64,000 nucleotides of DNA from Candidatus Altiarchaeales archaeon (GTDB taxonomy: Archaea; Altiarchaeota; Altiarchaeia; IMC4; SCGC-AAA252-I15). Where the stretch lies: the NCBI GenBank assembly GCA_014727915.1, contig WJMO01000006.1, positions 1-64,000 on the forward strand, given 5' to 3'. The first letter of the stretch is position 1; each line of letters begins with the position of its first letter. The notes beneath the pieces were generated by a model that worked only from the letters and a program-made list of their open reading frames with translations, did no database searches and was not told where the DNA came from. This document shows, piece by piece, positions 5,174 through 23,417 of this stretch. The position numbers and the translations under genes are program-made.

Positions 5174-5773
5174 ATGGTCGCTGTAAAATCCAGAGACGGA
5201 GCATATGTGATAATCATATTACTGCTAATCAGTTTTCTATGGTTGTTGAACAGTATCGGGAGCAGTGGGTGGAAGGGAGGGAGTGTGCAAGAGAATACCC
5301 CCGATGAACCGGAGGAACTGGATGTTGTCAGGGTTACAGTGGATGAAAAAGGGGAGATAATAGATGAAACAGATTTTATAGTGAACAATTCATTATTGGA
5401 AAAATACATCGTGGATACAGGTCTTCCTAAGGGCGTTAGAATCAAACCATATGTATCTGTCCTAGATATTAAGGGTGTTGATTTCTTAAATTATGAGTAT
5501 GTAGTCGACGACTACGTTTATCATTTACTGGTTTATTATGGGGGAGACAGATACAAGGAGGTAATAGAATCCGAGATGGATATAGCAGAAAGAGACGATA
5601 CTGGGAAAATTATTAAATCAAAGAATATGCACATAGAACCTCCTTCTTATTTCTGGTCAAATGATGGGAGGATACTCGTCGTTTATTCGGTTAATGACTC
5701 GGAACATCTAGAAATGCTGAAGGATTTCTTCATCGCCAAATTCCCGCCAACAGAGCCGCTGGATTTACAATAG
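5174..5773 (+). CDS. Hypothetical membrane-anchored protein (paralog of 18408..19037)
   Basis: N-terminal TM helix; shares SLLExY..LPxG, (Y/F)xWxxxxxILxxYS and C-terminal LK....PTE motifs with the ORF at 18408. Confidence 0.7.
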   Translation: MVAVKSRDGAYVIIILLLISFLWLLNSIGSSGWKGGSVQENTPDEPEELDVVRVTVDEKGEIIDETDFIVNNSLLEKYIVDTGLPKGVRIKPYVSVLDIKGVDFLNYEYVVDDYVYHLLVYYGGDRYKEVIESEMDIAERDDTGKIIKSKNMHIEPPSYFWSNDGRILVVYSVNDSEHLEMLKDFFIAKFPPTEPLDLQ

Positions 5774-5794
5774 AGACTGGACTATGCAATAGAT

Positions 5795-6601
5795 TCATAG
5801 GATGTATAGTACGATCATTCCGTAAAAGATCGCAATAATCCTGTAAATTGACCTTAACTTTCTATTTTGGATTTGGTCCCGAGTAATTGGGGGCACATAA
5901 TGCATCAGGGCAAAGCAGAGCAAGTAGGTCACTGCTGTGAAAACCCATGTTATTTTTGAAACAAAAGGCAGGATTGTTGCTATGACAAGGGTCAAGAAAA
6001 ATGATGAGAACACTATCATCTTGAGTAGGTTTAGGGGCAATGAATTTGCAGTCGTCTTGAAACCATTTTTTTCATCGTATTCCAGGTCTTTGAGTTCCTG
6101 AACCAGTTGAAAGGGAACGATTAAAAAGAAAATCAAAGAGGACATTCCAACCACGCCATAGTCAATGGCGCCACCACCAGTGAATATCCCAACAAGGAAT
6201 AGCACAGTAAACAATGAGGAATTAAGGGATAATTCAACTATTGGAACAGTCTTCATGTATAAAGGCGGGCCAGAGTATAGGATGCTGAATATAGTACCAA
6301 TAACTAACACCAGAAACAAACCCTTGGATATGATAAAAGATAAGGACAGAGCAGCCAAGATGGGTAAAAACACGGAAAACAGGGGCAAAAAGGGAATTTT
6401 CTTCCGTATGAATCTCTCAAAGACCAAATTTGAAGAATAACCAAAGGCAAGATATAATGAGGATATTATCGTGCACGAAAATAGCGGCACAATATCGAAT
6501 ATTTTTCCCGTATATGCAAGGCCAAAAAGGCCCAAACCCAGTAGGTGGGTCCAGTCTCCAGCTCTATAGAATCCTAGGATTCTCCTGACATAACCTAACA
6601 T
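5795..6601 (-). CDS. UbiA-family prenyltransferase
   Basis: Multi-TM protein with N-terminal R-x-x-D-W, YSGPPLYMK and second Asp-rich motif QELKDLEYDEKNGFKTTA. Confidence 0.8.
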   Translation of the reverse strand: MLGYVRRILGFYRAGDWTHLLGLGLFGLAYTGKIFDIVPLFSCTIISSLYLAFGYSSNLVFERFIRKKIPFLPLFSVFLPILAALSLSFIISKGLFLVLVIGTIFSILYSGPPLYMKTVPIVELSLNSSLFTVLFLVGIFTGGGAIDYGVVGMSSLIFFLIVPFQLVQELKDLEYDEKNGFKTTANSLPLNLLKMIVFSSFFLTLVIATILPFVSKITWVFTAVTYLLCFALMHYVPPITRDQIQNRKLRSIYRIIAIFYGMIVLYIL

Positions 6602-6680
6602 CTTGCCTTAGAGAGTAGATTCACTAGTTTGCTAAAATAATACTGAATTACACGCCTAAAATTGAAAGACTGTGGAAAGA

Positions 6681-8348
6681 TCAAAGGCATGCTTCTTTTT
6701 CAAGGTATTTTGTCCGCAGCCAATTTGAGATCTCGAAGGGCATGTATTCTCTAAGACGCTTCAGCCAACCGAGTTTATGCTTGTACAGCATATACTCAAT
6801 ATTATCCTTTGTTAGCAGAGCCTGTTTACTGTATTCTATGAAAAGAAGCTCCGACTCCTTTCGGGATAGTGAGTCCCTAGTATAAGTCACCACACCAGGT
6901 ATGTACGACCTGCCCATCGTATAATACTCCCAAATCCCTTTGTCAAATTCACAAGTGCTTAAAACTTCAAAACCATGCTTAATCGGATCATATGCTATGT
7001 CAGCCCGTATACCAACATTAATCAACTCAAGGGCCATATAATCATATAGGTTCCGGACTTCACTGACCTTAGGTATATTCGAGAGTTCATATTCGATTCC
7101 ATATCCAGGATATCCGACCATGTAAGTTGTTGTAACAGCCATACCCTTCTCCCGGCAGTATTTGAGTATCCGCTTAACATAATCTATCGTCTGCCCCTTC
7201 TGAATATCATCGATAACTTCCTGGTCGAGAGACTCAAGGCCGAATTTCGGCCTTCTGAAACCGGAATCATACAGAAGATCGATCAGTTCTTCATCTGTCT
7301 GGGGTAATCGCATGAACCCGCCCCAGTCGATTTTCAGTCCAGAGTCAATTATCAGCTGGCAAAGTTTTTTAAGCGCTGAAGGATCGCCGTTTAATAAGCT
7401 GTCCCCGGATAAAAACCGGTTAATACCGTATTTCTTCGAGTTTAGAGTTAGTTCATCCAGGACTTTTTCAGGTTCCCGAACCCTGAAGGATTTGAAGAAT
7501 CTGCGTTCATCACAGAACTTGCATCCACCAATGCACCCCCGCGAGATATGAAATGATAGATGACTATATCGGCGCATGTCAATACCTTCAAAGTCGGGAT
7601 AAGGCAAGTCATCGAGGTTTATTGGCTCTCTCGGCCCGGGGGAAAAAATTTCACCATCCCTAATACTTGATGTTCCACGTATGTCTGTGGGGAATGTACC
7701 GCCTTCAATTCCATTGACTATCTCAACAATTGAGTCCTCCCCCTCCCCATACACGATATAGTCCACGTTCTCGAACAGGAAATCCCTATATTTTGAGAAA
7801 ACACCCGACTTTTTGAGGGAATCACGTATGGAGTTGTGAAGAAAATTCATCGGGTAAAATACGCCAATCAACAATTCAGTTACAGGACCCCCCAGTATTA
7901 TCTTGGCTTTCTTGTTGTTCTCCTTTATCGCCTGTGCCAGGTATAATATTATCCCAACCGACTGTGACTGAACTCCAAACCCGATCACATCAGAATCAGA
8001 CAATCTGTCAGCAACAATATTGCATTCGCCCAGTATCGTATTAACCTCTTTTGGAAAGCGAATATGAATGCTTTCCCCGCCTCGATCAACAAAACCAAGC
8101 TCCTGGGCAAATAGTTCGCCGGAAATTAACTCAACCCACTCAAGATATTTTGGAATACCCAGGAGGGGTGATTTCTCCCCAAAATAATCCATAGATAGTA
8201 TGCTATCATATATCAGCTGCTCTTGCCTCTCGAATAATTGTATGGTTGAAGTATGACCTGCATGCTTCAAAGATGCATTAATATAACCAAGGCCAAGGGG
8301 GGTAACGCTGTAGGCCATGGGATTCAAACAAGTGAGCCTGACGTCCAT
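6681..8348 (-). CDS. Cobalamin-binding (class B) radical SAM enzyme
   Basis: PLGLGYINASLKHAGH, IILGGP and GEGE B12-domain motifs; SRGCIGGCKFC (CxxxCxxC); FGLES; MVGYPG. Confidence 0.9.
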   Translation of the reverse strand: MDVRLTCLNPMAYSVTPLGLGYINASLKHAGHTSTIQLFERQEQLIYDSILSMDYFGEKSPLLGIPKYLEWVELISGELFAQELGFVDRGGESIHIRFPKEVNTILGECNIVADRLSDSDVIGFGVQSQSVGIILYLAQAIKENNKKAKIILGGPVTELLIGVFYPMNFLHNSIRDSLKKSGVFSKYRDFLFENVDYIVYGEGEDSIVEIVNGIEGGTFPTDIRGTSSIRDGEIFSPGPREPINLDDLPYPDFEGIDMRRYSHLSFHISRGCIGGCKFCDERRFFKSFRVREPEKVLDELTLNSKKYGINRFLSGDSLLNGDPSALKKLCQLIIDSGLKIDWGGFMRLPQTDEELIDLLYDSGFRRPKFGLESLDQEVIDDIQKGQTIDYVKRILKYCREKGMAVTTTYMVGYPGYGIEYELSNIPKVSEVRNLYDYMALELINVGIRADIAYDPIKHGFEVLSTCEFDKGIWEYYTMGRSYIPGVVTYTRDSLSRKESELLFIEYSKQALLTKDNIEYMLYKHKLGWLKRLREYMPFEISNWLRTKYLEKEACL

Positions 8349-8405
8349 CGTTGAATATTGGAGATAACATTAGATATAGGATATTAAGGTAAATGGGATG
8401 TATTT

Positions 8406-9779
8406 ATGATGAATAGTCTACTATCTGGGAAAATGGTTGGGGGAATCAAACAGATTAAAACTGAAAGCCTGTGTCCAACATGCTTGAAAAAGACGGATGC
8501 AGTGGTGATTGAAGAGGATGACGGGATGATTATCAGGATAACGTGTCCAATCCACGGCACAGTAGATAACCCGCACCTATTCCATGACCCTGAGATCTAC
8601 ACGTCTATGAGGGCTCTTATGGCTGCCAGAGACGATAAATGGGTTCCAGATGCCGCGTTCCATGATGTTATAAACAGATGCAACATGAATTGCCCTCAAT
8701 GTTTTATCCCAAAAGTGCAAAGTCCAGAGACTAAACCAACAATAGGCCAGTTAGAGTCCGAAGCCAAAAGCCATAAAGGGTCCATCATCTATTTATTCGG
8801 TGGTGAACCCACCATGCAAGAGGATTTGACCGAGATCATAGAGTTATTCTCAAAGAGGGGGTATGAGACCTCGTTTTTCACAAACGGGTTGAAAATGGCA
8901 GATATTGAATATGCCGAAAAAATTTCAAGAACAAAACCGATGGTTGTATTATCGATTGACACACAGGATCAGAAACAAGGGCTTGAGATATACGGTGCAG
9001 ACGTTCTTCATGAAAAAATATTCGCTTTAGATAACATTATAAGTTTGAATCTCCCGGTGTTCTTGAACGTTGTGCTAAGAAAAGGCTTGAATGAAAACCA
9101 AATCCAGAAGTTCATTGAACTTTTGAAATCCAAGGATGGGAAGGTGAGGGGAATTTCCTTCTCAGGTTATTGGAATCCATCCGGCACAAAACAGGACGAT
9201 ATTGTCCCGGTTAAAGAGGTCATAGAAAAGATAAAACAGGAGATAGACTGCTCACTTGAGGATTTTATTGACTGCACACTATTCGGGCTATACTTCAGCC
9301 AGTTAATCAGGAAAATCACAGATAGTGGAGGAAGGAGGATATCAGCATGCTATCTCAGGCTATATCTTGTACATTACCACAGCAGACTGACACCGTTAAA
9401 CAGGTATATCAACCTGCCCAAGCTCAATGAAAAATTAAGACAGATATATGATAACTTCCAGGGCACGTTTTTCTCAAGGCATAAGGCAGTGATAGCCACT
9501 GCCATTGCATTTTCCATGAGCATAAAAAAGACAAGCTTCATAGGCATCATAATAAAAAATATCCGCTACTGCACCCCAATAGCTTTTAGTAATCGGCACC
9601 CTGCCACAATGTTGATCCCACGCACATCATCAATAGTAATCACAAGATACTTCGACCTGTCAAATGTTGACCTGGAGTTCATACCATATTGCAGCCTGGG
9701 GGCAATAGAGGAGGGAGGGGTTATGCCTTTTTGTCTGAGGGAGATTATGCGCTCTGCAAAAAGAAGTAGGGAGGGGTAA
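8406..9779 (+). CDS. Tes/MJ0619-like radical SAM protein, paralog 1
   Basis: TESLCPTC...CPIHG rubredoxin-like N-terminus, CNMNCPQC, GGEPT, FTNG, C-terminal ...YC...PFC. The start may be a downstream ATG. Confidence 0.85.
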   Translation: MMNSLLSGKMVGGIKQIKTESLCPTCLKKTDAVVIEEDDGMIIRITCPIHGTVDNPHLFHDPEIYTSMRALMAARDDKWVPDAAFHDVINRCNMNCPQCFIPKVQSPETKPTIGQLESEAKSHKGSIIYLFGGEPTMQEDLTEIIELFSKRGYETSFFTNGLKMADIEYAEKISRTKPMVVLSIDTQDQKQGLEIYGADVLHEKIFALDNIISLNLPVFLNVVLRKGLNENQIQKFIELLKSKDGKVRGISFSGYWNPSGTKQDDIVPVKEVIEKIKQEIDCSLEDFIDCTLFGLYFSQLIRKITDSGGRRISACYLRLYLVHYHSRLTPLNRYINLPKLNEKLRQIYDNFQGTFFSRHKAVIATAIAFSMSIKKTSFIGIIIKNIRYCTPIAFSNRHPATMLIPRTSSIVITRYFDLSNVDLEFIPYCSLGAIEEGGVMPFCLREIMRSAKRSREG

Positions 9780-9799
9780 TACCTGCTGGAACCCATGAC

Positions 9800-11137
9800 C
9801 TACCTAGGACTTATATAGTGCCATCTTTTCATGTCTTCAATACAATACCCGGCTTTGCCTTTTTTCACTTCCCGACATATGTTACAGGTACTCGAGAACT
9901 CAAAATCGACATTTGAAGGGTCCATATATCGTTCGACTGTGATTCCAAAAATATTCTTTGTCGTAGATGTTGAAAGCGGATAGTTATGCCTTAAGTCGTT
10001 TATTAGATTTGGGAGAAGCAGTAGACAGAACATCCTGAAGTCCGGGTTAGAGATGAAAGAACGGACGATTAGAGAGTAGGGAAACCATAGAAAAAATGTG
10101 AGAATCATGCTGTGAGAAGACTTCAATTTGGATCTTAGAAAATCCAGATTTTTAATCAATTCATTCAGATCAATCATCCTGGAGATAGGAACCAGCCTAC
10201 CCCCCCTAACCCAAAAATAGCATCTTAGCTCACATCTAGGCGTTCTTATCCCGCCTTTCCCGGTAATTAAGCGCAGTATCTCGAATGTTCTGTTGCTGAA
10301 GAGAGTGCACCCAAGTATATCCTCCAAAGTTATGTCAGTTGACTCGCTAACCAAATCGACTATGCCATTCTGTAGTATTATCTCCTTTTGTTTTCCCTCA
10401 AGATCCCAAAGAACCTTAAAATTAACAAGCCTCAACCAACCGCTATTTTTTGACCCGTATTCAATAGCTTTAGACACCTGATCCTCGTTAACGCCCTTGA
10501 AAACAATCAAGGATAGCATCGTTGGCATGCCTGAAGCAGCTAGGTTCTCCAGGGCCTTCAGCTTGGAATCTAAGACATCACAGCCATAAAGGCTTAGAGA
10601 TTGCCCACGGTCAAAGCTTAGGAACGAAAGGATTACAAGGTTTAAACCCGCTTCTTTAAGTTCACCCGCATAACCTGGTTCGGAAAATCGTATCCCGTTA
10701 GTGAATATCGCCACCCGCTTACCCTGACCCCTCAATCGCGTTATGATTTCCGGGAGGTCTTCCCGTATCGTGGGCTCACCACCACATAAATAAACCAGCG
10801 ATCCTTTGAAATCCTTGCTCAAATCCAAAATCTCATCTACAGTGAGTTCACCACCGTTCCGAAAACTCTTCGGGACAGCGCAAAACGGACAATCCATGTT
10901 GCAATCCATTGTGACTTTAAGCACTTGCCCGTCAGGGAACACATCATCATCCGTTATCATGTTTTCAGACAGAGCAGCGTATAGTCTGGGGTCCTCGAAG
11001 AAATGGAGCGTTTTGAACGACCCATGTTCTGGACACTCCTGAGAGATGTACATTTTACCGCCCTCATTAAACACTTCTGCCGCCACCCGTTCAAAGCAGA
11101 CAGGACACAAGCTCTCGGTTTTCCTTGAATCCATCAC
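9800..11137 (-). CDS. Tes/MJ0619-like radical SAM protein, paralog 2
   Basis: TESLCPVC...CPEHG, CNMDCPFC, GGEPT, PRCELRCY, YMDPSNVD..TC...GYC. Confidence 0.85.
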   Translation of the reverse strand: MMDSRKTESLCPVCFERVAAEVFNEGGKMYISQECPEHGSFKTLHFFEDPRLYAALSENMITDDDVFPDGQVLKVTMDCNMDCPFCAVPKSFRNGGELTVDEILDLSKDFKGSLVYLCGGEPTIREDLPEIITRLRGQGKRVAIFTNGIRFSEPGYAGELKEAGLNLVILSFLSFDRGQSLSLYGCDVLDSKLKALENLAASGMPTMLSLIVFKGVNEDQVSKAIEYGSKNSGWLRLVNFKVLWDLEGKQKEIILQNGIVDLVSESTDITLEDILGCTLFSNRTFEILRLITGKGGIRTPRCELRCYFWVRGGRLVPISRMIDLNELIKNLDFLRSKLKSSHSMILTFFLWFPYSLIVRSFISNPDFRMFCLLLLPNLINDLRHNYPLSTSTTKNIFGITVERYMDPSNVDFEFSSTCNICREVKKGKAGYCIEDMKRWHYISPR

Positions 11138-11217
11138 ATTATAGTATTAGAGAGGATACTAATAGTGTAAAAGAAGAAGAGGACAGGGTTATAAATTAAG
11201 GAGTATATTGGATAAAC

Positions 11218-12567
11218 ATGATCGGGGGAAAGCAGTCTGGGATGAATAAAACGACTAGTCTTTGCCCCGTTTGCCTGGATATTGTGAGTGCTGAGGTCTT
11301 CGAAAAAGACGGTAAGATGACGATGTCCAAGGAATGCAAAATACACGGAGTATTCGAGTCGACACATTTCTGGGAGGACCCCACCATATACAATTTCATG
11401 AAGGAACTGATAGGAGATTCAGAATGTGGAAACCCAGATGGCCTACTGGTAGATGTTAACTGCGAATGCAACATGAACTGCCCATATTGTTGGGTTTCAG
11501 ACCATGCGAAAACTGTGAAACAGACCACGATGGAAGAACTCAAATCGATCATAAGTGTATTCCAAGGATCCTCTATTTACCTGAGCGGCGGAGAACCAAC
11601 CTGTAGAGCAGACCTTCCGGAAATGGTGAAAACAATCAGAGATAACGGTAAGGAACCTGTAATATTCACCAATGGGCTCAAGTTCTCCAACGTGGACTAC
11701 GCATTGTCCATCAAGGAGGCTGGAGCAGGCATGATAATCTTCAACTTCAACAGTTTTGACCGGCGTCAATGTATCAAACTATACGGGGATGACATTTATG
11801 ACATGAAATTCAAAGGATTGAATAACGTCCTCGACATGGGCATACCAGTTTACCTGTATGTGATCCTGAAAAAGGGAGTTAATGAGGACCAGATCAACAG
11901 CGTGCTTGACTTTGCCACTGAACGGAGCCAATACTTGCGGGTTATAGATTTTCAGACCATCTGGGATATCAAGAATGGAGCTGGTGGGGAAGTGCTCACC
12001 CAAACCGGGATTTTAGACCTCTTGAAATCTGAGAGGGGCATTCTATTAGAGGATTTCCTGCAGTCCACTGCCTTCAGCCACTATTTTTTTGAAATATACA
12101 GGAAGGTCTTGGGGAGGGGTGGAAGAAGGTCGCCCAGGTGTGAGCTAAGATGCTATCTTGTGGCTGCAAACAAGTCATTAACGCCCATAACAAAGGTACT
12201 AGACATGGAAAAGCTCAACTACAAGTTGAAACTGTTGAACAGTAGATTAGACAGGTCCGGGCTGCCAAAGATGATTACTTTCTTATTAGGCTTCCCCTAT
12301 GTTTTCCTCATAGGAGAGTTCATAATGAAAAATGAGTTCAGACGCATTGTCATATCAAATGTGCGGAATACCATTACCTCCCTGTTTCAGAAGAAAAGGT
12401 TCCCTGCCTATTCGGCAACTGACATAGTAAGCATCATGCTGGGAAGATTCCATGATAGATTCAACGTAGACCTTGACTTCACAAAAACCTGTACCTTCCA
12501 TGCGGTTTGTAGAGATGGCAAACACGAGTCATTTTGCACGAGAGAGATTATGAGGTCTGGGAAATAA
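11218..12567 (+). CDS. Tes/MJ0619-like radical SAM protein, paralog 3
   Basis: TTSLCPVC...CKIHG, CNMNCPYC, GGEPT, PRCELRCY, FHDRFNVD..TC...SFC. Probable start 11242. Confidence 0.85.
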   Translation: MIGGKQSGMNKTTSLCPVCLDIVSAEVFEKDGKMTMSKECKIHGVFESTHFWEDPTIYNFMKELIGDSECGNPDGLLVDVNCECNMNCPYCWVSDHAKTVKQTTMEELKSIISVFQGSSIYLSGGEPTCRADLPEMVKTIRDNGKEPVIFTNGLKFSNVDYALSIKEAGAGMIIFNFNSFDRRQCIKLYGDDIYDMKFKGLNNVLDMGIPVYLYVILKKGVNEDQINSVLDFATERSQYLRVIDFQTIWDIKNGAGGEVLTQTGILDLLKSERGILLEDFLQSTAFSHYFFEIYRKVLGRGGRRSPRCELRCYLVAANKSLTPITKVLDMEKLNYKLKLLNSRLDRSGLPKMITFLLGFPYVFLIGEFIMKNEFRRIVISNVRNTITSLFQKKRFPAYSATDIVSIMLGRFHDRFNVDLDFTKTCTFHAVCRDGKHESFCTREIMRSGK

Positions 12568-13892
12568 TGGATGAAATCAGGTATAAGACCGAAAGCTTAT
12601 GCCCCATTTGCCTCAGGAAGCTGGAGGCTGAAGTCTACGTGAAAGACGGGACTGTAATCGTGTCAAGAGAATGCGAGGAACATGGGGAATTTGACTGCCT
12701 TCACGCATGGGATGACCCTGAAATATTCAAGAGATTCATGGATATCTCACATAAGCTTGTTGAGAACAGATTCAACGACCTCACAATCGATGTCACAGAC
12801 AGATGCAACATGCGATGTCCATTCTGTTTTAATACGGCAAAGGACGAACCAAGCTTGGATCGCATAATCGAAAAAGCGAAGGCATGGGAGAACGGAAATA
12901 TCGTCCTCTACGGCGGGGAACCAACCATGAGAGACGACCTGCCGGAACTGATAACAGAACTTAAGAGTATGGGATTCGGGGTGATACTGCTCTCAAACGG
13001 ATTGAGGATAGATGAAAAATTAGCAGACAAGCTTGACAACAGCAGATTAGATGGCATAGTTTTACAATTTGATTCCGTGGATGATGACATAAATGAGCGG
13101 ATGAGGGGTATGAGAGTGCTTGAACGAAAGCTGAACGCGATTGAATCCCTAAAAGATGGGAGGATTTGGCTCTCACTTTTTGTGGTGATTATGAAGGACA
13201 CGAATGAAGACCAGATACCAGACATCATAAATCTCGCATGCAAGGAATCCGAGCTGGTTAGGACGGTTTTATTCGCTCCGGTATCGCCAGAGGGAATTGA
13301 GGGGTCTGAGAGAGGACACATCAGGAACAGGGCAATATTCGATAAGATAGGGGAAGCCGGGATTACAAAAGATGATTTCATGGAAAACAGTGAGTTTGAC
13401 ATATCATTAACGAAGTTCCTCTCAAAGATGGGCATCAGAAGGAAGAGCATAACCCTATGTGAAGCATTATGCTATGTCTACCGAGTAAAAGACCATTTCA
13501 TACCATTGAATCATTTGGTGGATTTAAAAGCCATAACGAATGCATTAGATGAGAGCGACTCTGCTATGTCGCTTGCCATAAAATTGTTGAAGTATAATGT
13601 GAAGGCCGATTTACGGCTTCTGCCGGCGATAATGAGAGTATCCGCTAGAATCATGAGAACCCTGGTCTTCAGGGTAAAGTTTGACGACAACATCCCCGGC
13701 ATGGTAGGCATACTAGTCAATCCGACACAGACCAGATATAATGCAGACTACAATTTCATAAGAACATGCAACCTATACTCGGACACCAGAGAGGGGATAA
13801 CCACATACTGTGAGAACAACATATTCTCGACCGGCAAGAAGAACAGTGAAAAACTAGAGAAGAGCCATTTTTACCAGATGAAGACAGGATAA
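12567..13892 (+). CDS. Tes/MJ0619-like radical SAM protein, paralog 4
   Basis: TESLCPIC...CEEHG, IDVTDRCNMRCPFCF, GGEPT, LQFD, LCEALCY, TC...TYC. The ATG overlaps the stop of paralog 3 (TAATG). Confidence 0.85.
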   Translation: MDEIRYKTESLCPICLRKLEAEVYVKDGTVIVSRECEEHGEFDCLHAWDDPEIFKRFMDISHKLVENRFNDLTIDVTDRCNMRCPFCFNTAKDEPSLDRIIEKAKAWENGNIVLYGGEPTMRDDLPELITELKSMGFGVILLSNGLRIDEKLADKLDNSRLDGIVLQFDSVDDDINERMRGMRVLERKLNAIESLKDGRIWLSLFVVIMKDTNEDQIPDIINLACKESELVRTVLFAPVSPEGIEGSERGHIRNRAIFDKIGEAGITKDDFMENSEFDISLTKFLSKMGIRRKSITLCEALCYVYRVKDHFIPLNHLVDLKAITNALDESDSAMSLAIKLLKYNVKADLRLLPAIMRVSARIMRTLVFRVKFDDNIPGMVGILVNPTQTRYNADYNFIRTCNLYSDTREGITTYCENNIFSTGKKNSEKLEKSHFYQMKTG

Positions 13893-13946
13893 AACAGGGA
13901 TAAAATCGTGAGAAACGTAGATTATTAATGAAGTTCATACTTTATT

Positions 13947-16340
13947 ATGTATTTTTTCCGAGACAGCAACGAGTTGAGGATATTCCTTTCCGCATTCGTA
14001 ATATACTTATTCTTCATACATTGGACAGGATGGAACGAGAACTCAAGATTAGATCTGAGCAGGAGTATCGTCGAGGAAGGCAGGTTACATATCGACACCT
14101 ATGCCTCGAATACAGGTGATCGGGCATATTACAATGGCCACTATTACAGCGATAAACCACCGGGACTATCGATAGTCTCTACTCCAGCATATCTCATATT
14201 AGATTCAATCCCCAGACCCAAAAACTATGAGGATGAAGGAAATAGCGGGGAGATAATACTATTGAAAGACGAGACAGGGTCGCCCACTGTTACTTCAGAT
14301 ATTGAACCGGGCAAAAAAACACGCTTGTCGACCATAATCCTTACAATCCTCGCATCATCATTGCCTGCAGCGTCTAACGTTATCTTACTTTTCAGGATAC
14401 TCGGCAAATTTGTCCAAAATGAGAGGATACGGAGTTTAGTTGTTTTAACATATGGCCTGGGAACCCTGGCCTTCCCATACGCACTGATGTTCCTCCCGTA
14501 CAGCATAGGCATATTCATCACATTATTAGCCTTTAGCATGGGGTGGAAAGGGGACGTATCCCCCGTAAAAGGTTGCATCATTGGTCTACTGTTATCAGTG
14601 ACGTTGAGCTTTGATTATATTTTTTTCCCGATAATCATCCCGTCAACCATATACCTATTTTCCAGGATGGGCAAAGCAAAGAAGTGTTATATCCTTGGTT
14701 TGATAACAGGATTATTGCCCATAATAGCATACAATTACCTGATATTCGGACAATTAACCTTCTTTTATAAACACATGGACAGTGATGTTTGGGTATGGGA
14801 TAACCCGGCATTGGAAGAGGGAGCGCTTCCAGTAACCAACCTCTGGATTCCCATCCAAGTATTATTCTACCCGTACAGGGGACTATTCTTCTACTATCCT
14901 GTTTTATTATTTTCGGTTGTGGGGTTGGCCCGTATGAGAAAGAGATTCAGAGGTGAATTCCATATGATAACATCGATGTTCCTCTTGATCTTGGGTGTTT
15001 ATTCAACCATGCTGTATACATGGCATGGGCATATGTTCGGGCCCAGGTATTTCACACCATTAATGCCGTTTCTTATGATACCTACCGCATATGCACTATC
15101 AGAAAAGAATAAAAGAATATTCTTATTGTTGATGTTCACTTCGATATCAGTGAACATACTTGGTTTGCAGAATTTTGAGAATATTATCACAGACGATTTC
15201 AGACAGGTTTCAGCAGAACACGTTTACTCTCTGAAAGGTTTCACATACAATCCTTTATTTGACCACTATCTCCCATTAACCGCGGATAACGGTCCGAGGA
15301 GCAGGCTTTTCGAAAACATCATAGAATATGGCGGACAGTTTGACATCCGTGACATCCCCTATTCTAAGGGCGTGCTCAGCTCCCCCTATCTCCGCAGAGA
15401 GTACATTCCAGTAGCCACAATACCGGGAATGGGTTTCTTCGTTCTGAGGGTGGAATTCCTATGCCTTATACCCTTAACCGTGATATTGGCGCTCATCTGG
15501 AGGAAGGAACTATCCAGACATCTTACGAGAGATAAGTCCCTAATAGTCCTGGCCGTAGTAACCCTGGTATTTCTACTTGCCTTCGTGAGGGTCAAAGACT
15601 CCCTGTTCACCAACGGATGGTATCCGAAGGAAGGGGGTGAAAACGGGTTTTTCAGATTCACCGGGGAAGAAGCAGAGGTGCTTGTCTATAACACAGGAGG
15701 AATGAACAGGATAAACATCATGTTACAAGCTTGGAGCCCGCAGAAGGGCAGAGACCTAGAGATACTCCTGAACAATGAACTGCTTGGAACATACAATATC
15801 TTACCCCAGGGTTCAACGGTTGGAACAACACTTATAAAACTCAAACCGGGAACGAACAAGTTCACTCTTAGATCAACCAGTGGATGCGACAACCCCCCCG
15901 AAGTCATGGCAAACGGAAAGACGATGATATGCTACAGCTTCGGGTTCAGCAACATAAGCTTCAAAAGACAGGACAACCCACTTTTTAGGGAGAACTGGTA
16001 CATGGAGGAAGAGGACGAACATGGGACATTCAAGTTCATGAGCCAGAACGCAACACTAAACATGCGCTCAACAGCTGGAGAAGCTGTTGAGTTGGCTTTC
16101 ACATCCTTCAGCTTTCACAAAAAGAGAGAACTACATGTGTATGTGAACGGCGAGGACATTGGAACAATCGAGAATGATGGTGGGGGATACAGTATGAACA
16201 GGTTCAAAGCACACCTCACAGAGGGTGATAATGAGATCCTCTTCCATTCAGTCCCCGGGTGCGACATACCTTCGGAGGTTGGGGAGTGGGATGACACGCG
16301 GTGCCTGAGCTTCGGGTTCAGGGACATAAAGATTGAGTAA
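13947..16340 (+). CDS. Multi-pass GT-C-type glycosyltransferase-like protein with two C-terminal beta-sandwich repeats
   Basis: NENSRLDL..SIVE.G.L.ID..Y, YSDKPPGLS, RGLFFYYP and GPRY motifs with many TM helices; two ~115-aa C-terminal repeats (W-Y...GCD.P.EV...C.SFGF). Confidence 0.7.
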   Translation: MYFFRDSNELRIFLSAFVIYLFFIHWTGWNENSRLDLSRSIVEEGRLHIDTYASNTGDRAYYNGHYYSDKPPGLSIVSTPAYLILDSIPRPKNYEDEGNSGEIILLKDETGSPTVTSDIEPGKKTRLSTIILTILASSLPAASNVILLFRILGKFVQNERIRSLVVLTYGLGTLAFPYALMFLPYSIGIFITLLAFSMGWKGDVSPVKGCIIGLLLSVTLSFDYIFFPIIIPSTIYLFSRMGKAKKCYILGLITGLLPIIAYNYLIFGQLTFFYKHMDSDVWVWDNPALEEGALPVTNLWIPIQVLFYPYRGLFFYYPVLLFSVVGLARMRKRFRGEFHMITSMFLLILGVYSTMLYTWHGHMFGPRYFTPLMPFLMIPTAYALSEKNKRIFLLLMFTSISVNILGLQNFENIITDDFRQVSAEHVYSLKGFTYNPLFDHYLPLTADNGPRSRLFENIIEYGGQFDIRDIPYSKGVLSSPYLRREYIPVATIPGMGFFVLRVEFLCLIPLTVILALIWRKELSRHLTRDKSLIVLAVVTLVFLLAFVRVKDSLFTNGWYPKEGGENGFFRFTGEEAEVLVYNTGGMNRINIMLQAWSPQKGRDLEILLNNELLGTYNILPQGSTVGTTLIKLKPGTNKFTLRSTSGCDNPPEVMANGKTMICYSFGFSNISFKRQDNPLFRENWYMEEEDEHGTFKFMSQNATLNMRSTAGEAVELAFTSFSFHKKRELHVYVNGEDIGTIENDGGGYSMNRFKAHLTEGDNEILFHSVPGCDIPSEVGEWDDTRCLSFGFRDIKIE

Positions 16341-16342
16341 AA

Positions 16343-16993
16343 CTATTTTTTCTCTGCTTTGATGAAGGTCTGGGCTCCGAAGAGAAGCCATAGGAATCTG
16401 AGTTTCAGGTATATTCTCATTAGGAGGGGGGATTGGGGGAGTGTGCTCTGGGTCGTGTATGGTAGGAAACGGTCTATCGACTCTGTGACCGTGTAACCTT
16501 GGGTTTCCAGCAGGTCTTTGAGGGCTCGGTCGTCCAGTGGTGTTATGTGGTCGAAGAACATCCAGTAGTCCTGTGAGCAGAACCTGATGTTGGGCTGCAG
16601 TATCAGCAGGGAGCCTCCCGGCCTGAGCAGCCTCTTAGCCTCCAGCAGGGCTTTCACTATCTCGTCCCGGGTGAGGTGCTCGAGGACGTTGCTGATGAAC
16701 ACGACATCGACCGAGCCGCCATCCAAATCCCTGATGTCGGAAGCCTTGGAATGCAAGAACTCAACGTCGTCGGACAGGTGCTGCCTGGACCGCTCATCCT
16801 TGTCGACGGCGATCTTCCGGCGGGCGGTTATGTTGTTTATGAACGCGCCAGCCCCTGAGCCGACGTCCAACACCGTGGAATCGGCAGGCACATATCCCTG
16901 GAGGAAGTCCCTGCATAGAACCTTCCAGATCCCATGCTTTGACTGGAAGTTATGGTCGCAGGACAACCCAGCAACATCATCAGCCATCCTCAT
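16343..16993 (-). CDS. Class I SAM-dependent methyltransferase
   Basis: VLDVGSGAG, DVVFISNVLEHL and LRPGG motifs. Start moved to MRMADD because the track start abuts the divergent gene. Confidence 0.88.
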   Translation of the reverse strand: MRMADDVAGLSCDHNFQSKHGIWKVLCRDFLQGYVPADSTVLDVGSGAGAFINNITARRKIAVDKDERSRQHLSDDVEFLHSKASDIRDLDGGSVDVVFISNVLEHLTRDEIVKALLEAKRLLRPGGSLLILQPNIRFCSQDYWMFFDHITPLDDRALKDLLETQGYTVTESIDRFLPYTTQSTLPQSPLLMRIYLKLRFLWLLFGAQTFIKAEKK

Positions 16994-17035
16994 TCTTACT
17001 ATATATTTTCCAGATAAAAAATCCATTAGTAGGAG

Positions 17036-18424
17036 ATGAAAAAAGGGTTTAACACAGTCAGATGGTTGAGTGCGGCAATGGCCGTCCTGTTCATCTTAGA
17101 GGTCCTGTTCTTCCACCAGCTCGTATACTCGGAGGCTGAGCAGCTGGGAGAGGGGGACAGAGAGTTCCTTGATGAGATGTCCATAATGTACGGGTTCCCG
17201 GTTGACGGAATATACCACGTGGACGAACCCTACTGGATGCACGGAACATACGCCTACCAACTCCTGTTCAAGGAGAAGAGCCTGCTACACCGGGACTGGC
17301 AGCACCCCCACATGCTAGACCAGCCGCAACTGTCAAGGTTGATACTTGGATTGGGGCTGGATCTCAGGGGAGGGGATGTAGGGGAGAGCATAGCAGGACT
17401 AATGAACTGGAAGAGCATCGCATACCATAACTTCTGGGTGAAGAACGGCATCGAAAACAAGGAGAGGGACTATGAGATAGTGTTGGACAGGGAGTTGGAG
17501 GAATACATGGGATACCTCATGGGACTGTCTGGCGGCGGGAAAATGACATCGTTCACCCGGAGGGACTACCGGATCGCGCGGGAAACCGCCTATTTCTTCG
17601 CGGTACTCTCCGCCCTGACAATCATGGCCATAAGCTACAGAGTATACCCCCACCCGCTGACGTCGATTATCGCAGGCCAGGTTTTCCTAGCCAACGGGGT
17701 CGCCGTGCCCGCATTCGAACGGGTTCTGTCCGAGAGCATATGCACTTTCTTCACCCTAACAACACTGGCCTTGGTTATGAAACTGGGCGAATCCAGGAGT
17801 AAGAGAAAATGGGCTTTCTTGGCTGGGGTCTCGCTGGGCATGGCCTTGAGCACCAAGTTCACGACAGCCTACATGATACCCGTAGCTGCGGTGGCGCTGC
17901 TCCTGGACAGGAAGACCGAGAAGAGAGAGTTGGTGGGAGCCGCCACTATACTGGCCCTATCAGCGACCATATCATTCCTGTTGTTGAACCCTTCATTGTA
18001 CCCTGACCCTGTGGGTAACACGGCCTGGATGGTGAGCCACAGGGCTAAGATGATGGGCATACAATCGGGGGTGCAGCCCGAAGCAATAAGGACGCTGGAT
18101 GAGAGGGTTCGGCTGATAATCGGTAAGGGCGTGCTCATGGACAGCAGCGAATCAATGACCATCCAGGGAATGCACATCATACTGTTCATATGGGGTTTGA
18201 GACACATTTACGCGAAAGCCAGGGTTGAATTTGCGTCGGGGCGCATGGGCAGGCACGCGGTCGCATCCCTGTTCATAGCATCGACCTTCATCGTTGTGGG
18301 AGCCAGCATACACATGGACTGGCAGAGATACTATATCCCGTTCATGCTATGCTCCGTAATAGCGTTCTCAGCGGGGCTTGGGCAGGCGATAAAGGACGTA
18401 TTTGAAGATGGAAAACGAGGATAG
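17036..18424 (+). CDS. PMT/ArnT-like GT-C glycosyltransferase
   Basis: DEPYW acidic motif in the first loop, DQPQL, multiple TM helices, GMALSTKF, RYY near the C-terminus. Confidence 0.75.
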   Translation: MKKGFNTVRWLSAAMAVLFILEVLFFHQLVYSEAEQLGEGDREFLDEMSIMYGFPVDGIYHVDEPYWMHGTYAYQLLFKEKSLLHRDWQHPHMLDQPQLSRLILGLGLDLRGGDVGESIAGLMNWKSIAYHNFWVKNGIENKERDYEIVLDRELEEYMGYLMGLSGGGKMTSFTRRDYRIARETAYFFAVLSALTIMAISYRVYPHPLTSIIAGQVFLANGVAVPAFERVLSESICTFFTLTTLALVMKLGESRSKRKWAFLAGVSLGMALSTKFTTAYMIPVAAVALLLDRKTEKRELVGAATILALSATISFLLLNPSLYPDPVGNTAWMVSHRAKMMGIQSGVQPEAIRTLDERVRLIIGKGVLMDSSESMTIQGMHIILFIWGLRHIYAKARVEFASGRMGRHAVASLFIASTFIVVGASIHMDWQRYYIPFMLCSVIAFSAGLGQAIKDVFEDGKRG

Positions 18425-19037
18425 TGAATGTAAGATGGGGGACTATGAGGTCAGGCTAAGCCCTGACAGGCCAAAGAGGGGGTTGGTGATCGTCGCAGCG
18501 CTGGCATTGGCCATCGCAGTGTGGGGCGTCCACAACCACATTTACAAGATCCCGGAGGGGGAGCGGCCAGATTTCGCATCCCCTGGAATGACCGTGGTGG
18601 AGCAGTACAACTACGACGGCGGGCGGCTAGAGTCCAAGTCATACAGGGAGGTCAGCACCTCGCTCCTCGAGTCATACTTCAGGACGGACGACCTCCCCCA
18701 GGGATTCCGCCAGGTGAAGGAGTTCATCGAGGTGAGGTACGGGGTCGAGAGCATAGTATCGGAGTTCGACAAAGACGGAAGAGCATACTTTTTCTCGGTG
18801 CAGGAGTCGAGCAAGGGATACAGGAACAACATAAGGATAGGATACGATATAGCCTCAAGCGAGCATGGAGACAGCGTACTATTGTTGAGGTCTAAGGACG
18901 GGGGTGAAACATCCTTCCTCTGGACGCATGAGGACAAGATACTAAGGCTGTATTCTAAGGAGGACACCATAGACCTGGTAGTGCTGAAAGAGCACATGGT
19001 AGAAGAGCACCAGCCAACAGAGAGCACCAGCATATGA
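18408..19037 (+). CDS. Hypothetical membrane-anchored protein (paralog of 5174..5773)
   Basis: Single TM helix; SLLESYFRTDDLPQG, SFLWTHEDKILRLYS and LKEH...QPTE align by eye with the 5174 protein. Confidence 0.7.
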   Translation: MENEDSECKMGDYEVRLSPDRPKRGLVIVAALALAIAVWGVHNHIYKIPEGERPDFASPGMTVVEQYNYDGGRLESKSYREVSTSLLESYFRTDDLPQGFRQVKEFIEVRYGVESIVSEFDKDGRAYFFSVQESSKGYRNNIRIGYDIASSEHGDSVLLLRSKDGGETSFLWTHEDKILRLYSKEDTIDLVVLKEHMVEEHQPTESTSI

Positions 19038-19110: not shown

Positions 19111-20142
19111 TTGAACATGGACCGGGTCATGGTCTGCGGGTCCGCCACCATCGACATGTTCCTGGACGTGGAGTCAGGTTCTGTGAGCATGCACGCGGGA
19201 GGGTTCGAGACCGACCTCATATGCTTCAGCTCGGGCAGCAAGGTCCAGATCAAGGAGTTGAAGACCCGGATCGGCGGCGGGGGCGTGAACACCGCAGTGG
19301 ACCTGTCCAGGCTGGGGAACAGAGCATCCTACCTGGGAAAGATAGGAGGCGGGCACAACGGGAAGAAGATACGGACGGCGCTGAAGAAGGAGAAGGTAGA
19401 TTTCATAGGAACAAGGGAGTCAAGGGAGGAGTCTGGATTCAGCATAATAGTCAAGAGCGAGGACGGAGACCGGACCATACTCACCTACAAGGGCGCCAAC
19501 AACGGCCTCAAGTGGGGGGACTTCAAGAAAACCGAGCTTAAGGGGGCTGACTGGTTCTACTTCGCTTCCATGGTCGGAGAGTCCTACAAGACCGTCGAAC
19601 AGCTCAGCCAATGGGCGGTGAAGAACAGGAAGAGGATACTCTTCAACCCCTCAAGCTACGTGGTCAGACGGGGCCTCAAGTACATCAGGAAGGTCATGTC
19701 CGTCTCGGACATCTTCGTCGTCAACATGGAGGAGGCTCAGATAACCCTGGGGCTGCCCCCTAACGCGGCCCAGCTCCCGGAGGCGGAGGTGGACAGCATA
19801 CTTAAAAGGCTGCACAAGATCGGGCCCAAGATAGTCGCCATAACAAACGGGGACAAGAGGGCGTACGTCTACGACGGCAGGCACAAGTACACTGCCCTGC
19901 CCTACCCTGCCAAGACCGTGGACACCGCAGGGGCGGGAGACTCGTTCAGCAGCGGATTCCTATCTGCCTACATGAGGGGCGAGGACGTGGAGCGCGCCCT
20001 TAACACGGGCCTCGCATGCGCCCACAGCGTAGTAAACTCGCCTGAGACCTGGCTGCAATTGAGGAGCATGAAGGAGGCGGAGGCCGTCTCCGACGCTTTC
20101 AACAGTAGAGGGCATACTGTGACCAGGCAGCGCCTGATGTGA
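19111..20142 (+). CDS. PfkB/ribokinase-family carbohydrate kinase
   Basis: GGGGVNTA and DTAGAGDSF signatures. Confidence 0.92.
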   Translation: MNMDRVMVCGSATIDMFLDVESGSVSMHAGGFETDLICFSSGSKVQIKELKTRIGGGGVNTAVDLSRLGNRASYLGKIGGGHNGKKIRTALKKEKVDFIGTRESREESGFSIIVKSEDGDRTILTYKGANNGLKWGDFKKTELKGADWFYFASMVGESYKTVEQLSQWAVKNRKRILFNPSSYVVRRGLKYIRKVMSVSDIFVVNMEEAQITLGLPPNAAQLPEAEVDSILKRLHKIGPKIVAITNGDKRAYVYDGRHKYTALPYPAKTVDTAGAGDSFSSGFLSAYMRGEDVERALNTGLACAHSVVNSPETWLQLRSMKEAEAVSDAFNSRGHTVTRQRLM

Positions 20143-20201
20143 ACGCTTAAAAAACCCTCCCGGGTAATAGTATTTTCCAAGTAAACATTGGGGTTTTTGG
20201 A

Positions 20202-21134
20202 ATGGAAGAGGACGTTTTACTCGAGGGTTTTCTGAAGGAGAAGGGCGTTGACGAAGGTTTGGTGGATTTGATATCCGAGGTTGCATCACTTGCGGTACCC
20301 ATAAGGAAGGAGTTCCCGCACAGGACAGGGAAGGCCGGGACCAAGAACAAGTACGGGGAGGAGCAGGTTGCACTGGACGTCTGGGTCAACGACTTCCTCA
20401 CGAAGAAGCTCCTGGATACAGGGGCTGTTAAGACGGTCGTGAGCGAGGAACTGCCCGAGCCGGTTCACAGCAAGGACAAGACAGGCAAGTACACCGTTTC
20501 ACTGGACCCGCTTGACGGGTCCTCAAATGTTAAGTCGAACAACATGTTCGGAACCATCGTGGGAGTTTACAAGAAGGACCTCCCAGGCAAGGGGAGGGAC
20601 CAGGTTGCAGCCTTCTACAAGCTCTACGGGCCCAGCACCACCATCGTCCTGACCACCGGCGACGGAGTGCACGAGTTCGTCAAAGCCCGGAAGGGACACA
20701 GCAACTTCATACTATTGAGGGAGGACGTGGAATTCCCAGAACCGAAGATATACGGGGTCGGCGGCAACCCCGACAAGTGGATACCAGAGTTCGAGGTGTT
20801 CGTCAGGCTTTTGAGGGACAGGGGATTGAAGCTCCGCTACGGAGGAAGCTTCGTGGGCGACTTCAACCAGGTATTGCACCACGGCGGCTTCTTCGGATAC
20901 CCTGCGCTCATGGGCAAGCCCAAGGGCAAGCTACGGCTGGTCTTTGAGGGCTGCCCGATGGCGTTTATAGCCAAGGAGGCGGGGGGCTCGTCATCCTGCG
21001 GGAGCAAGAGCCTCCTGGACATCGAGGCACGGGACATCGACGAGCGGGTGCCTATCTACATAGGCAACGAGGACCTGATAGAGAGTTTGGAGGAGATATT
21101 CGAGGCGTGCAAGGAGGCGCGCGAATACTATTGA
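20202..21134 (+). CDS. fbp: Class I fructose-1,6-bisphosphatase
   Basis: SEE, DPLDGSSN, LRYGGSFVGD and GKLRLVFEG motifs. Confidence 0.95.
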   Translation: MEEDVLLEGFLKEKGVDEGLVDLISEVASLAVPIRKEFPHRTGKAGTKNKYGEEQVALDVWVNDFLTKKLLDTGAVKTVVSEELPEPVHSKDKTGKYTVSLDPLDGSSNVKSNNMFGTIVGVYKKDLPGKGRDQVAAFYKLYGPSTTIVLTTGDGVHEFVKARKGHSNFILLREDVEFPEPKIYGVGGNPDKWIPEFEVFVRLLRDRGLKLRYGGSFVGDFNQVLHHGGFFGYPALMGKPKGKLRLVFEGCPMAFIAKEAGGSSSCGSKSLLDIEARDIDERVPIYIGNEDLIESLEEIFEACKEAREYY

Positions 21135-22162: not shown

Positions 22163-22169
22163 ATCAAAG

Positions 22170-23357: not shown

Positions 23358-23417
23358 AGGCCGGGTATATCCCTGGCTGAGCCCCCTTTTATACTCGTTT
23401 TCATATTTTTTGCTACA

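Follow-up and report, generated by a model that had tools for sequence, protein, structure and literature searches.

The first 64,000 nucleotides of contig WJMO01000006.1 (GenBank assembly GCA_014727915.1, Candidatus Altiarchaeales archaeon), referred to here as the window, contain eight contiguous genes of deviant base composition between positions 5174 and 16340. They encode four paralogous radical S-adenosylmethionine (SAM) enzymes, W1 to W4, that are related to the archaeal lipid-coupling enzyme Tes, together with a B12-type radical SAM enzyme, a divergent UbiA-fold membrane protein, a large glycosyltransferase of the GT-C fold, and a small anchored protein. We propose that this 11-kb stretch is a cassette of foreign origin, inserted between dnaJ and a host glycosylation pair, and that it serves the membrane-bound radical-SAM tailoring of an isoprenoid lipid or a lipid-linked glycan, a reading to which we give a probability of about 45%.

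Gene layout and base composition

Between dnaJ, which ends at 5124, and a sugar-kinase gene starting at 19111, 11 genes were found to be tightly packed. Nine of them had been described in the initial annotation as one self-contained cluster (5795–18424) with genes for a UbiA prenyltransferase, a B12 radical SAM enzyme, four Tes-like enzymes, two GT-C glycosyltransferases, and a methyltransferase. This gene content was confirmed, as all nine are compact open reading frames (ORFs) with gaps of at most 80 bp and were assigned with Pfam and NCBIfam or, in the case of the 797-aa GT-C, based on its relatives and a structural model. The claim of a single unit did not hold, however, since the eight genes from 5174 to 16340 revealed a GC content of 0.40–0.44 and a GC content at third codon positions (GC3) of 0.42–0.55, whereas the remainder of the window has values of about 0.57 and 0.75 (GC3 of the other 50 genes tabulated 0.50–0.84, mostly above 0.70) and the genes for the methyltransferase and the second GT-C resemble those of the host. 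The proposed extent stood only in part: the low-GC gene at 5174–5773 (plus strand; GC 0.398, GC3 0.42), the first of the island, lies outside its start, and its last two genes differ in composition. Because of this break, what had been annotated as one cluster resolves into a foreign-looking 11-kb island and three genes of host-like composition, namely the methyltransferase gene (16343–17026, minus strand; GC 0.534, GC3 0.70), the gene for the PMT-type GT-C (17036–18424, plus strand; GC3 0.706), and a gene for a small anchored protein of 211 aa (18402–19037, plus strand; GC3 0.73), which overlaps the end of the preceding gene by 23 bp.

Of the six radical SAM genes detected in the window, five are located in a single 7.2-kb block. 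The gene for the B12-type enzyme (6681–8348, minus strand, 555 aa) and the W1 gene (8406–9779, plus strand, 457 aa) are divergently transcribed and are followed by the genes for W2 (9800–11137, minus strand, 445 aa), W3 (11218–12567, plus strand, 449 aa), and W4 (12534–13892, plus strand, 452 aa). W4 has this length when read from a TTG start at 12534; the database form of 441 aa begins with an ATG at 12567, which overlaps the stop codon of W3. All four short Tes-like enzymes matched the Pfam domains Zn_ribbon_HMPTM and Radical_SAM (42.3 and 64.7 bits for W1, 60.6 and 87.8 bits for W2, 52.6 and 67.7 bits for W3) and are 27–40% identical to one another. Since five of six radical SAM genes fall into 7.2 kb and four of them are paralogues of one family, their grouping is not due to chance. 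Common deviant composition of the eight genes, tight packing, and the overlap of W3 stop and W4 start all speak for a cassette.

Both W4 (56% identity) and the B12 enzyme (53%) have a best named relative that carries the label Ca. Altiarchaeota, suggesting that relatives of the cassette reside among low-GC archaea of the Altiarchaeota/DPANN kind. The best relatives of five island genes were found at similar identity (42–56%). The window itself is archaeal, encoding PolD DP1 and DP2, TFIIE-alpha, Rpp14, an archaeal threonyl-tRNA synthetase editing domain, and prefoldin. When its proteins were compared by tblastn with the 79 Tes loci described below, all matches were distant, such as that of PolD DP2 to Methanomassiliicoccales loci (43% identity). 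At the island borders, neither a tRNA gene (the two of the window are located at 687 and 31111) nor flanking direct repeats were found, the repeats detected reflecting only paralogue similarity. An Rfam scan revealed no family other than tRNA, and no integrase was among the Pfam matches of the window proteins.

Relationship of W1–W4 to Tes

Tes couples the phytanyl termini of archaeol, leading to glycerol dialkyl glycerol tetraether (GDGT) or macrocyclic archaeol. For each of W1–W4, Tes (NF045702) was the best NCBIfam family, with 127.8, 155.1, 159.7, and 178.5 bits, respectively, against an equivalog cut-off of 450, while TrsS (NF045646), a radical SAM (seleno)protein family, gave 126.2 (W1) to 175.5 bits against a cut-off of 490. 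Among solved structures, a sequence search with W4 identified GDGT-MAS (7TOL) as its best relative (E = 3.5e-33). A structure was modelled for W4 only (predicted local distance difference test, pLDDT, 95.3) and matched 7TOM and 7TOL with a query-normalised TM-score (TMq) of 0.79, E = 5e-33, and 24–25% identity over about 490 columns; the next solved fold was MoaA, matching the core only (TMq 0.39). Based on these comparisons, the kinship of W1–W4 to Tes at the level of the fold appears to be real.

A profile of W1–W4 yielded 772 representatives at E ≤ 1e-30 from among 1.84 billion. In the best 150 of these 772, the motif CX3CX2C occurred within the first 220 residues once in 140 cases, twice in eight, and not at all in two. 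NCBIfam was run on 109 of the best 150, omitting the two window proteins, shorter entries, and the proteins P0370, P0411, P0014, and P0015; 101 of them matched neither Tes nor TrsS at E 1e-70, and five of the other eight passed a cut-off. In a FastTree phylogeny of 154 rows, a quick method with midpoint rooting, the two-motif Tes and TrsS sequences formed one clade (support 100), and W1–W4 fell inside a separate one-motif clade of 76 rows (support 95). Within this clade, W1 grouped with P0268 (47% identity, support 100), W2 with P0267 (42%, support 99), and W4 with P0002 (56%), while W3 was sister to W2 and P0267. Since each thus pairs with its own kin elsewhere, the four paralogues would have split before these lineages did. 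For W4, 15 relatives with 34–56% identity were found, the best of which is labelled a Ca. Altiarchaeota metagenome-assembled genome by its source. Altogether, sequence and tree place W1–W4 in what appears to be a large sister family of Tes, with at least 100 clusters (50% identity) of one-motif proteins without a name. In the literature covered, which includes PMC13003381, PMC11868695, and PMC13188914 (with TrsS in a table) but no subscription journals, neither a one-motif Tes-like family nor such a cluster is described. Some of these proteins may be contained in the tables of Tes homologues that accompany PMC8941075.

A plasmid search with W4 gave 24 records, which were set aside as they were all below 33% identity and either TrsS-like or PqqE, and none of three inspected plasmid neighbourhoods of W4 relatives was like the island. 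On two haloarchaeal plasmids (L080, 8476–11824, and L081, 8977–11087), a gene for a distant Tes/TrsS-like radical SAM enzyme precedes a methyltransferase gene, the L080 pair lying beside genes for a low-molecular-weight phosphatase and a second methyltransferase. Haloarchaea make no GDGTs (PMC8941075). That the island acts on a non-lipid small molecule, a cofactor, or a peptide, like TrsS-type relatives beside methyltransferases and arsenic- or selenium-type genes, seems highly improbable to us. Such a target would suit the nearly equal Tes and TrsS scores, the pairing of plasmid relatives with methyltransferases, in one case beside the phosphatase gene, and the methyltransferase gene adjoining the island. 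Yet these plasmid relatives are less than 30% identical and stand on the two-motif or TrsS side of the family, the adjoining methyltransferase gene has host composition, and other island genes encode polytopic membrane proteins.

Metal sites of the one-motif clade

Four metal sites of Tes were defined by Lloyd et al. (PMC9433317) and in a 2026 review (PMC13459092). We counted the corresponding residues in an alignment of 226 family members, comparing 90 canonical two-motif sequences with the 76 members of the clade of W1–W4 (W clade). The rubredoxin-like site CX2CX20CX2H (C23, C26, C47, and H50 in W1 numbering) is invariant in W1–W4, is found in nearly the whole W clade (Cys in 74–76 of 76 members, His in 72), and is kept in canonical Tes as well. 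The same holds for the radical SAM motif: CX3CX2C and a GGEPT SAM-binding block are invariant in W1–W4, and the motif was present in 76 of 76 clade members and in the canonical sequences. Each of the three Cys of the C-terminal cluster occurs in 75/76 members and is also kept in canonical Tes.

Two features differ. In the Tes of Methanocaldococcus jannaschii (MjTes), an N-terminal auxiliary [4Fe-4S] cluster is bound by C73, C77, and C80 plus a His (PMC9433317). The respective columns are filled in all 90 canonical sequences and gapped in 69–73 of the 76 W-clade members, including W1–W4; a smaller count gave 0/19 for short-form and 13/13 for canonical proteins. The C-terminal [4Fe-4S] cluster of Tes has three Cys and the labile Met439 as ligands (PMC9433317). 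In the candidate column for this residue, Met was found in 86/90 canonical sequences, compared to mostly Gly or Asn in the W clade. In addition, 53 of the 76 clade members, with W2, W3, and W4 but not W1 among them, carry an extra Cys (forming CxxxC) where canonical sequences mostly have Thr or Gly. The Tes homologues of two Methanomassiliicoccales-type loci (L058 and L062; 535–540 aa, 40–44% identity to canonical Tes) likewise contain no more than a single exact CX3CX2C within their first 260 residues, and the motif spacing of their N-terminal cluster may be altered.

The label of the initial annotation, four Tes-like enzymes, is thus borne out at the level of the fold, while a designation as Tes was rejected, with 128–178 bits against a cut-off of 450 and with the N-terminal cluster and, in the candidate column, the Met of Tes missing. 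It is for the same reasons very unlikely that W1–W4 are plain tetraether or macrocyclic archaeol synthases, i.e., Tes isoenzymes making GDGT-type lipids. Tes is their best family and provides their best solved structure, and functional spread within the Tes family is known, since a second Tes homologue of Methanosarcina acetivorans gave only traces of macrocyclic archaeol (PMC8941075). Nevertheless, besides the scores, the gapped columns of the N-terminal cluster and the exchange in the candidate Met column, the separate clade and the 101 of 109 representatives without a Tes or TrsS match argue against this explanation.

The B12-type radical SAM enzyme and its pairing with one-motif enzymes

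The product of 6681–8348 matched the Pfam families Radical_SAM (71.2 bits) and, just under the cut-off of 32.1, B12-binding (31.6 bits), the latter also being listed as PF02310 in the precomputed Pfam annotation of the database. Its 23 NCBIfam matches were mostly B12-type radical SAM families, including all of the strongest ones; none reached the cut-off, the best being BchE with 105.9 bits against 481. In an alignment with 35 other B12 radical SAM enzymes, both the CX3CX2C motif (C272, C276, and C279, all invariant) and a Rossmann-type block at the N-terminus line up, so that the protein is predicted to belong to the class B radical SAM type and to bind cobalamin. Only three close relatives with more than 34% identity (53, 44, and 39%) were detected among 112 matches, the closest one labelled Ca. 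Altiarchaeota by its source. A complex prediction of the enzyme (residues 20–555) with W1 scored 0.00 against a mark of 0.32, which speaks neither for nor against binding.

As a background set only, we used 79 loci with canonical Tes or TrsS genes (26–36% identity), obtained by a genome scan with an alignment of the W4 subfamily, in which the chosen patterns turned out to be common to canonical Tes too. A relative of the B12 radical SAM enzyme occurred in only two of them, L063 and L076; of the 77 canonical Tes loci that lack a one-motif paralogue, L063 alone has such a relative. In L076 (1–16622, uncultured bacterium), three B12 radical SAM genes flank two one-motif Tes-like genes in a co-oriented cluster comprising genes for DegT, a radical SAM-SPASM protein, an anchored protein, a membrane protein with 11 segments, a B12 radical SAM enzyme, the two one-motif Tes-like enzymes, two more B12 radical SAM enzymes, DegT, GT2, a WbqC-like protein, a radical SAM enzyme, and DUF5674. 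This organisation looks like an uncharacterised pathway for a glycan or glycolipid. Furthermore, a natural fusion was found in the protein P0370 (950 aa), in which a B12-binding radical SAM enzyme (up to about residue 500) precedes a one-motif Tes-like radical SAM enzyme (512–920). The N-terminal half of this protein shares 42% identity with a B12 radical SAM enzyme of L076. Thus, the pairing of Tes-like and B12 radical SAM enzymes recurs.

UbiA-fold protein, glycosyltransferases, and small anchored proteins

The protein encoded next to the B12 enzyme (5795–6601, minus strand, 268 aa) is a divergent UbiA-fold, prenyltransferase-like membrane protein with at least six hydrophobic segments. It matched Pfam UbiA (PF01040) with 40.9 bits (cut-off 34.2) over profile positions 72–228 of 250, and an Atlas search gave a feature score of 0.95 and a structural TM-score of 0.86 to UbiA clusters. 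No solved relative was found by sequence at E up to 10, and an assignment at the subfamily level to digeranylgeranylglyceryl phosphate (DGGGP) synthase or DPPR synthase was not obtained, the best NCBIfam prenyltransferase matches reaching 18–29 bits against cut-offs of 205–277. UbiA prenyltransferases bind Mg-diphosphate through two Asp-rich motifs. By eye, only an Asn and one acidic residue are left in what we take to be the first of these motifs, while the second motif is kept; all UbiA profile matches begin after the region of the first motif.

The last island gene (13947–16340, plus strand) encodes the 797-aa protein, which had no Pfam match. We assign it to the GT-C fold based on its relatives (up to 45% identity, from Aenigmatarchaeota, Altiarchaeota, Nanoarchaeota, and DPANN), some of which carry PF13231 (PMT_2) or are named GT39, on Foldseek matches, and on a C-terminal third resembling carbohydrate-binding modules (CBMs). 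Using an AlphaFold model (pLDDT 87.5), Foldseek matched the membrane part to EmbC, EmbA/B (TMq 0.30), ALG9, and ALG12 with a probability of 1.0 and target-normalised TM-scores up to 0.51 (ALG12), and the C-terminal third to tandem CBM51/CBM22. In the first loop, T47, D49, R50, Y57, Y58, K61, and P63 are nearly invariant in the family; D49, conserved in this way among 40 relatives, corresponds to the acidic residue typical of the first outer loop of GT-C glycosyltransferases. Within the gene, a 22-nt direct repeat (15936–15957 and 16308–16329, 91% identity) marks the internal duplication from which the two C-terminal beta-sandwich domains arise.

Of the host-like genes, the one at 17036–18424 codes for a second GT-C (462 aa; PMT 34.7 bits, cut-off 22.7; PMT_2 26.8 bits, cut-off 26.1), which showed only a local profile match to the family of the 797-aa protein (62 columns, probability 86%). 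The class I SAM methyltransferase (227 aa) matched Methyltransf_11 with 52.2 bits and its best NCBIfam family with 45.8 bits against 180; it is at most a putative pathway member. The small anchored proteins encoded at 5174–5773 and 18402–19037 are paralogous (30% identity over 132 aa, E = 6e-12) and bracket the region, one with island and the other with host composition. The former (199 aa) carries a single hydrophobic segment at residues 1–19 and had no Pfam match above the cut-off and nothing usable in the Atlas (scores up to 0.87, TM-score below 0.5). For neither of the two was a family or a function found. Further downstream, the window contains a PMT_2-type GT-C gene (694 aa) with a convergent, overlapping GT2 gene similar to AglJ and dolichyl-phosphate hexose transferases (90 bits against 325) at 46904–49678, and the host therefore has lipid-linked glycosylation genes of its own.

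Proposed pathway and its target

What was observed are the genes present and their folds, the motifs of the metal sites, the break in composition, and the recurrence of the Tes-like/B12 pairing. From these we infer a substrate and a product, the order in which the steps would run, and a single pathway for all eight genes, as follows. The UbiA-fold protein would make or hold an isoprenoid-linked precursor in the membrane. Each W enzyme would then cleave SAM at its CX3CX2C cluster and abstract a hydrogen from an unactivated sp3 carbon of a saturated chain; as in Tes, the radical might be parked on the retained C-terminal [4Fe-4S] cluster until a second abstraction leads to a C–C bond. The presence of four old paralogues would then imply either four positions or four substrates. 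Subsequently, the B12-type enzyme would add a methyl group to the same chain or close a ring, and the Emb-like GT-C, with its two CBM-like domains as a guide, would move a sugar from a polyprenyl-phosphate donor at the outer face.

Hints on the substrate of the W enzymes come from their C-terminal helical region. As a measure, we took the most hydrophobic 19-residue stretch on the Kyte–Doolittle scale, the median of which was 1.37 in the W clade (n = 76), 0.71 in canonical Tes/TrsS (n = 90), and 1.12 in other one-motif proteins. A value of at least 1.6 was reached by 26% of the W clade, 0% of canonical Tes/TrsS, and 17% of the other one-motif proteins. A hydrophobic helix lies at residues 344–362 of W2 and 352–370 of W3. 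The lipid or lipid-linked substrate suggested in the initial annotation is therefore plausible for the W enzymes, although L076, in which the same enzyme type is paired with sugar-modifying genes, makes a glycan target a live rival.

In this rival explanation, the radical SAM enzymes would act on the carbohydrate and not on the lipid, for instance through C-methylation or C–C branching of a sugar bound to a lipid carrier or a nucleotide, and the GT-C would install this sugar on a surface glycan or protein, the whole being an island of glycan variation. We regard this as rather unlikely, but several observations would agree with it. L076 places two Tes-like and three B12 radical SAM genes among two DegT genes, a GT2 gene, a WbqC-like gene, and two further radical SAM genes; the island closes with a GT-C bearing CBM-like domains and adjoins host glycosylation genes, and its low-GC, variable character suits glycan loci. 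On the other hand, the whole Tes fold is kept, and with it the C-terminal domain in which the lipid pockets of GDGT-MAS are formed (PMC9433317), the C-terminal region is more hydrophobic than in Tes, and no nucleotide-sugar enzyme was detected in the island with Pfam and NCBIfam. The L076 enzymes, moreover, belong to another one-motif clade and have nearest matches other than W proteins.

A number of findings weigh against the tailoring pathway proposed here. Apart from the island, a one-motif Tes-like enzyme was seen in a gene context only at this sugar-type locus, and the enzymes of L076 belong to a different one-motif clade. The genome scan showed no other genome with the set, and relatives of the UbiA-fold protein, of either GT-C, of the methyltransferase, or of the small proteins were found in 0/79 loci. 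The Altiarchaeota-labelled relatives of W4 and the B12 enzyme lie on different contigs (174,163 and 189,956 bp), and, apart from the window's own, no contig was common to relatives of W4, the B12 enzyme, and the GT-C, as judged by eye and by a weak proxy. As 144 matches were counted for the GT-C compared to 15 for W4 and three for the B12 enzyme, the GT-C, with its far more numerous relatives, may be an unrelated neighbour. The UbiA-fold protein may be inactive, since two of the three Asp of its presumed first motif seem to be lost on inspection. Finally, the strand alternates among the island genes, which therefore do not form one operon, and canonical lipid-synthesis genes are absent from the window.

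Several of these points would also be expected if the island were a mosaic of unrelated genes in a variable region, in which only the B12 enzyme and W1–W4 cooperate. The missing common contig, the much commoner GT-C family, the alternating orientations, and the absence of UbiA or GT-C relatives from the Tes loci all go in this direction. We nevertheless consider a mosaic unlikely, because the eight genes share the same deviant composition with gaps of at most 80 bp and the best relatives of five of them are found at similar identity; besides, shared contigs are a weak proxy, and distant relatives escape the search index.

Building on the tailoring pathway, we tentatively put forward a broader view that is more likely to be wrong than right. 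The one-motif Tes-like proteins would then constitute an enzyme family so far overlooked, which has a single iron site besides two Fe–S clusters and, together with B12 partners to which some members are fused, forges C–C bonds and methyl branches in molecules that are lipid-linked but are not GDGTs. In the island, four such proteins, the UbiA-fold enzyme, and the Emb-like GT-C would produce an isoprenoid glycolipid or lipoglycan that is cross-linked or branched and is not yet known from archaeal lipidomes, encoded by a cassette passed among Altiarchaeota/DPANN-like archaea and their neighbours.

Other genes of the window

Directly after the region, 19111–25833 harbours a run of sugar-phosphate genes including a bacterial-type ATP-dependent phosphofructokinase, a class I fructose-1,6-bisphosphatase, and a class II aldolase. 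Within this run, a 206-aa ORF with a fragmentary match to archaeal fructose-1,6-bisphosphate aldolase/phosphatase (31 bits against 520) is followed by an overlapping 227-aa ORF without a family, and both may be parts of a split or decayed gene. At 26865–28576, the sixth radical SAM gene (TIGR03916, 347.5 bits, cut-off 343.5) putatively functions in DNA modification or repair and lies beside a gene for a DUF4130 protein (TIGR03915, 80.5 bits against 112), a pairing that has already been described and is unrelated to the island. Furthermore, we identified a phospholipase D-like protein (61080–61649), whose best NCBIfam match was DISARM DrmC (66 bits against 133). The product of 63208–63558, a small protein, matched T4SS_pilin with 38 bits.

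Significance and comparison with known systems

Tes, Gms, Grs, and Gmm have been found only from 2019 on and explain archaeal lipids that are used as proxies in climate research and ecology. Current Tes surveys use BLAST against Tes at E < 1e-50, and a sizeable unnamed sister family with different metal sites would point to lipid or glycolipid chemistry missed by them. It may also bear on the Tes homologues of haloarchaea and DPANN, lineages without GDGTs or without lipid synthesis, which Zeng et al. (PMC8941075) flagged as unexplained. The four-paralogue cassette offers a compact, directly testable starting point.

Among known systems, Tes/GDGT-MAS (MJ0619; 7TOL, 7TOM) is closest to the W enzymes: W4 shares its fold, the rubredoxin-like site, CX3CX2C, and the three C-terminal Cys. 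Unlike Tes, the W clade lacks the N-terminal [4Fe-4S] site and, in the candidate column, an equivalent of the labile Met, and in most members carries the extra Cys; the W enzymes are also about 50 residues shorter and have a more hydrophobic C-terminal helix. TrsS belongs to the same superfamily, has a similar length, and scores close to Tes for W1–W4, but its representatives group with Tes in the two-motif clade and not with W1–W4.

The B12 radical SAM lipid modifiers (GrsA/GrsB, Gmm, HpnR/HpnP, and the ladderane enzyme) have the domain plan that is also predicted for the window's enzyme, a B12-type Rossmann domain with a radical SAM core. The gene for the latter adjoins those for putatively lipid-type, C–C-forming radical SAM enzymes, as gmm and grs adjoin gms (PMC11214058). 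The scores of the window's enzyme against these families are low (ladderane 81.9 bits against 360, HpnJ 58.6 against 578, HpnR 26 against 650), and it differs by an insert in the B12 domain and by the small number of its close relatives. In L076 and P0370, a one-motif Tes-like enzyme likewise stands beside, or is fused with, a B12 radical SAM enzyme, and in L076 genes for anchored and polytopic membrane proteins adjoin. The B12 enzymes of L076 are, however, only about 25% identical to that of the window, the context is DegT, GT2, and WbqC instead of UbiA and GT-C, and the 625-aa membrane protein of that locus is unrelated to the GT-C family (profile comparison, probability 1%).

The mycobacterial arabinan system combines the UbiA-family DPPR synthase with the Emb/Aft GT-C arabinosyltransferases. 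The island resembles it in having a gene for a UbiA-fold enzyme near one for a GT-C with C-terminal carbohydrate-binding modules, and over the full length, the structures most similar to the 797-aa protein were EmbC and EmbA/B, though with a TMq of only 0.30 and about 10% identity. It differs from the arabinan system by the absence of epimerase and phosphatase genes, by its divergent UbiA-fold protein, and by its radical SAM enzymes, which have no counterpart there.

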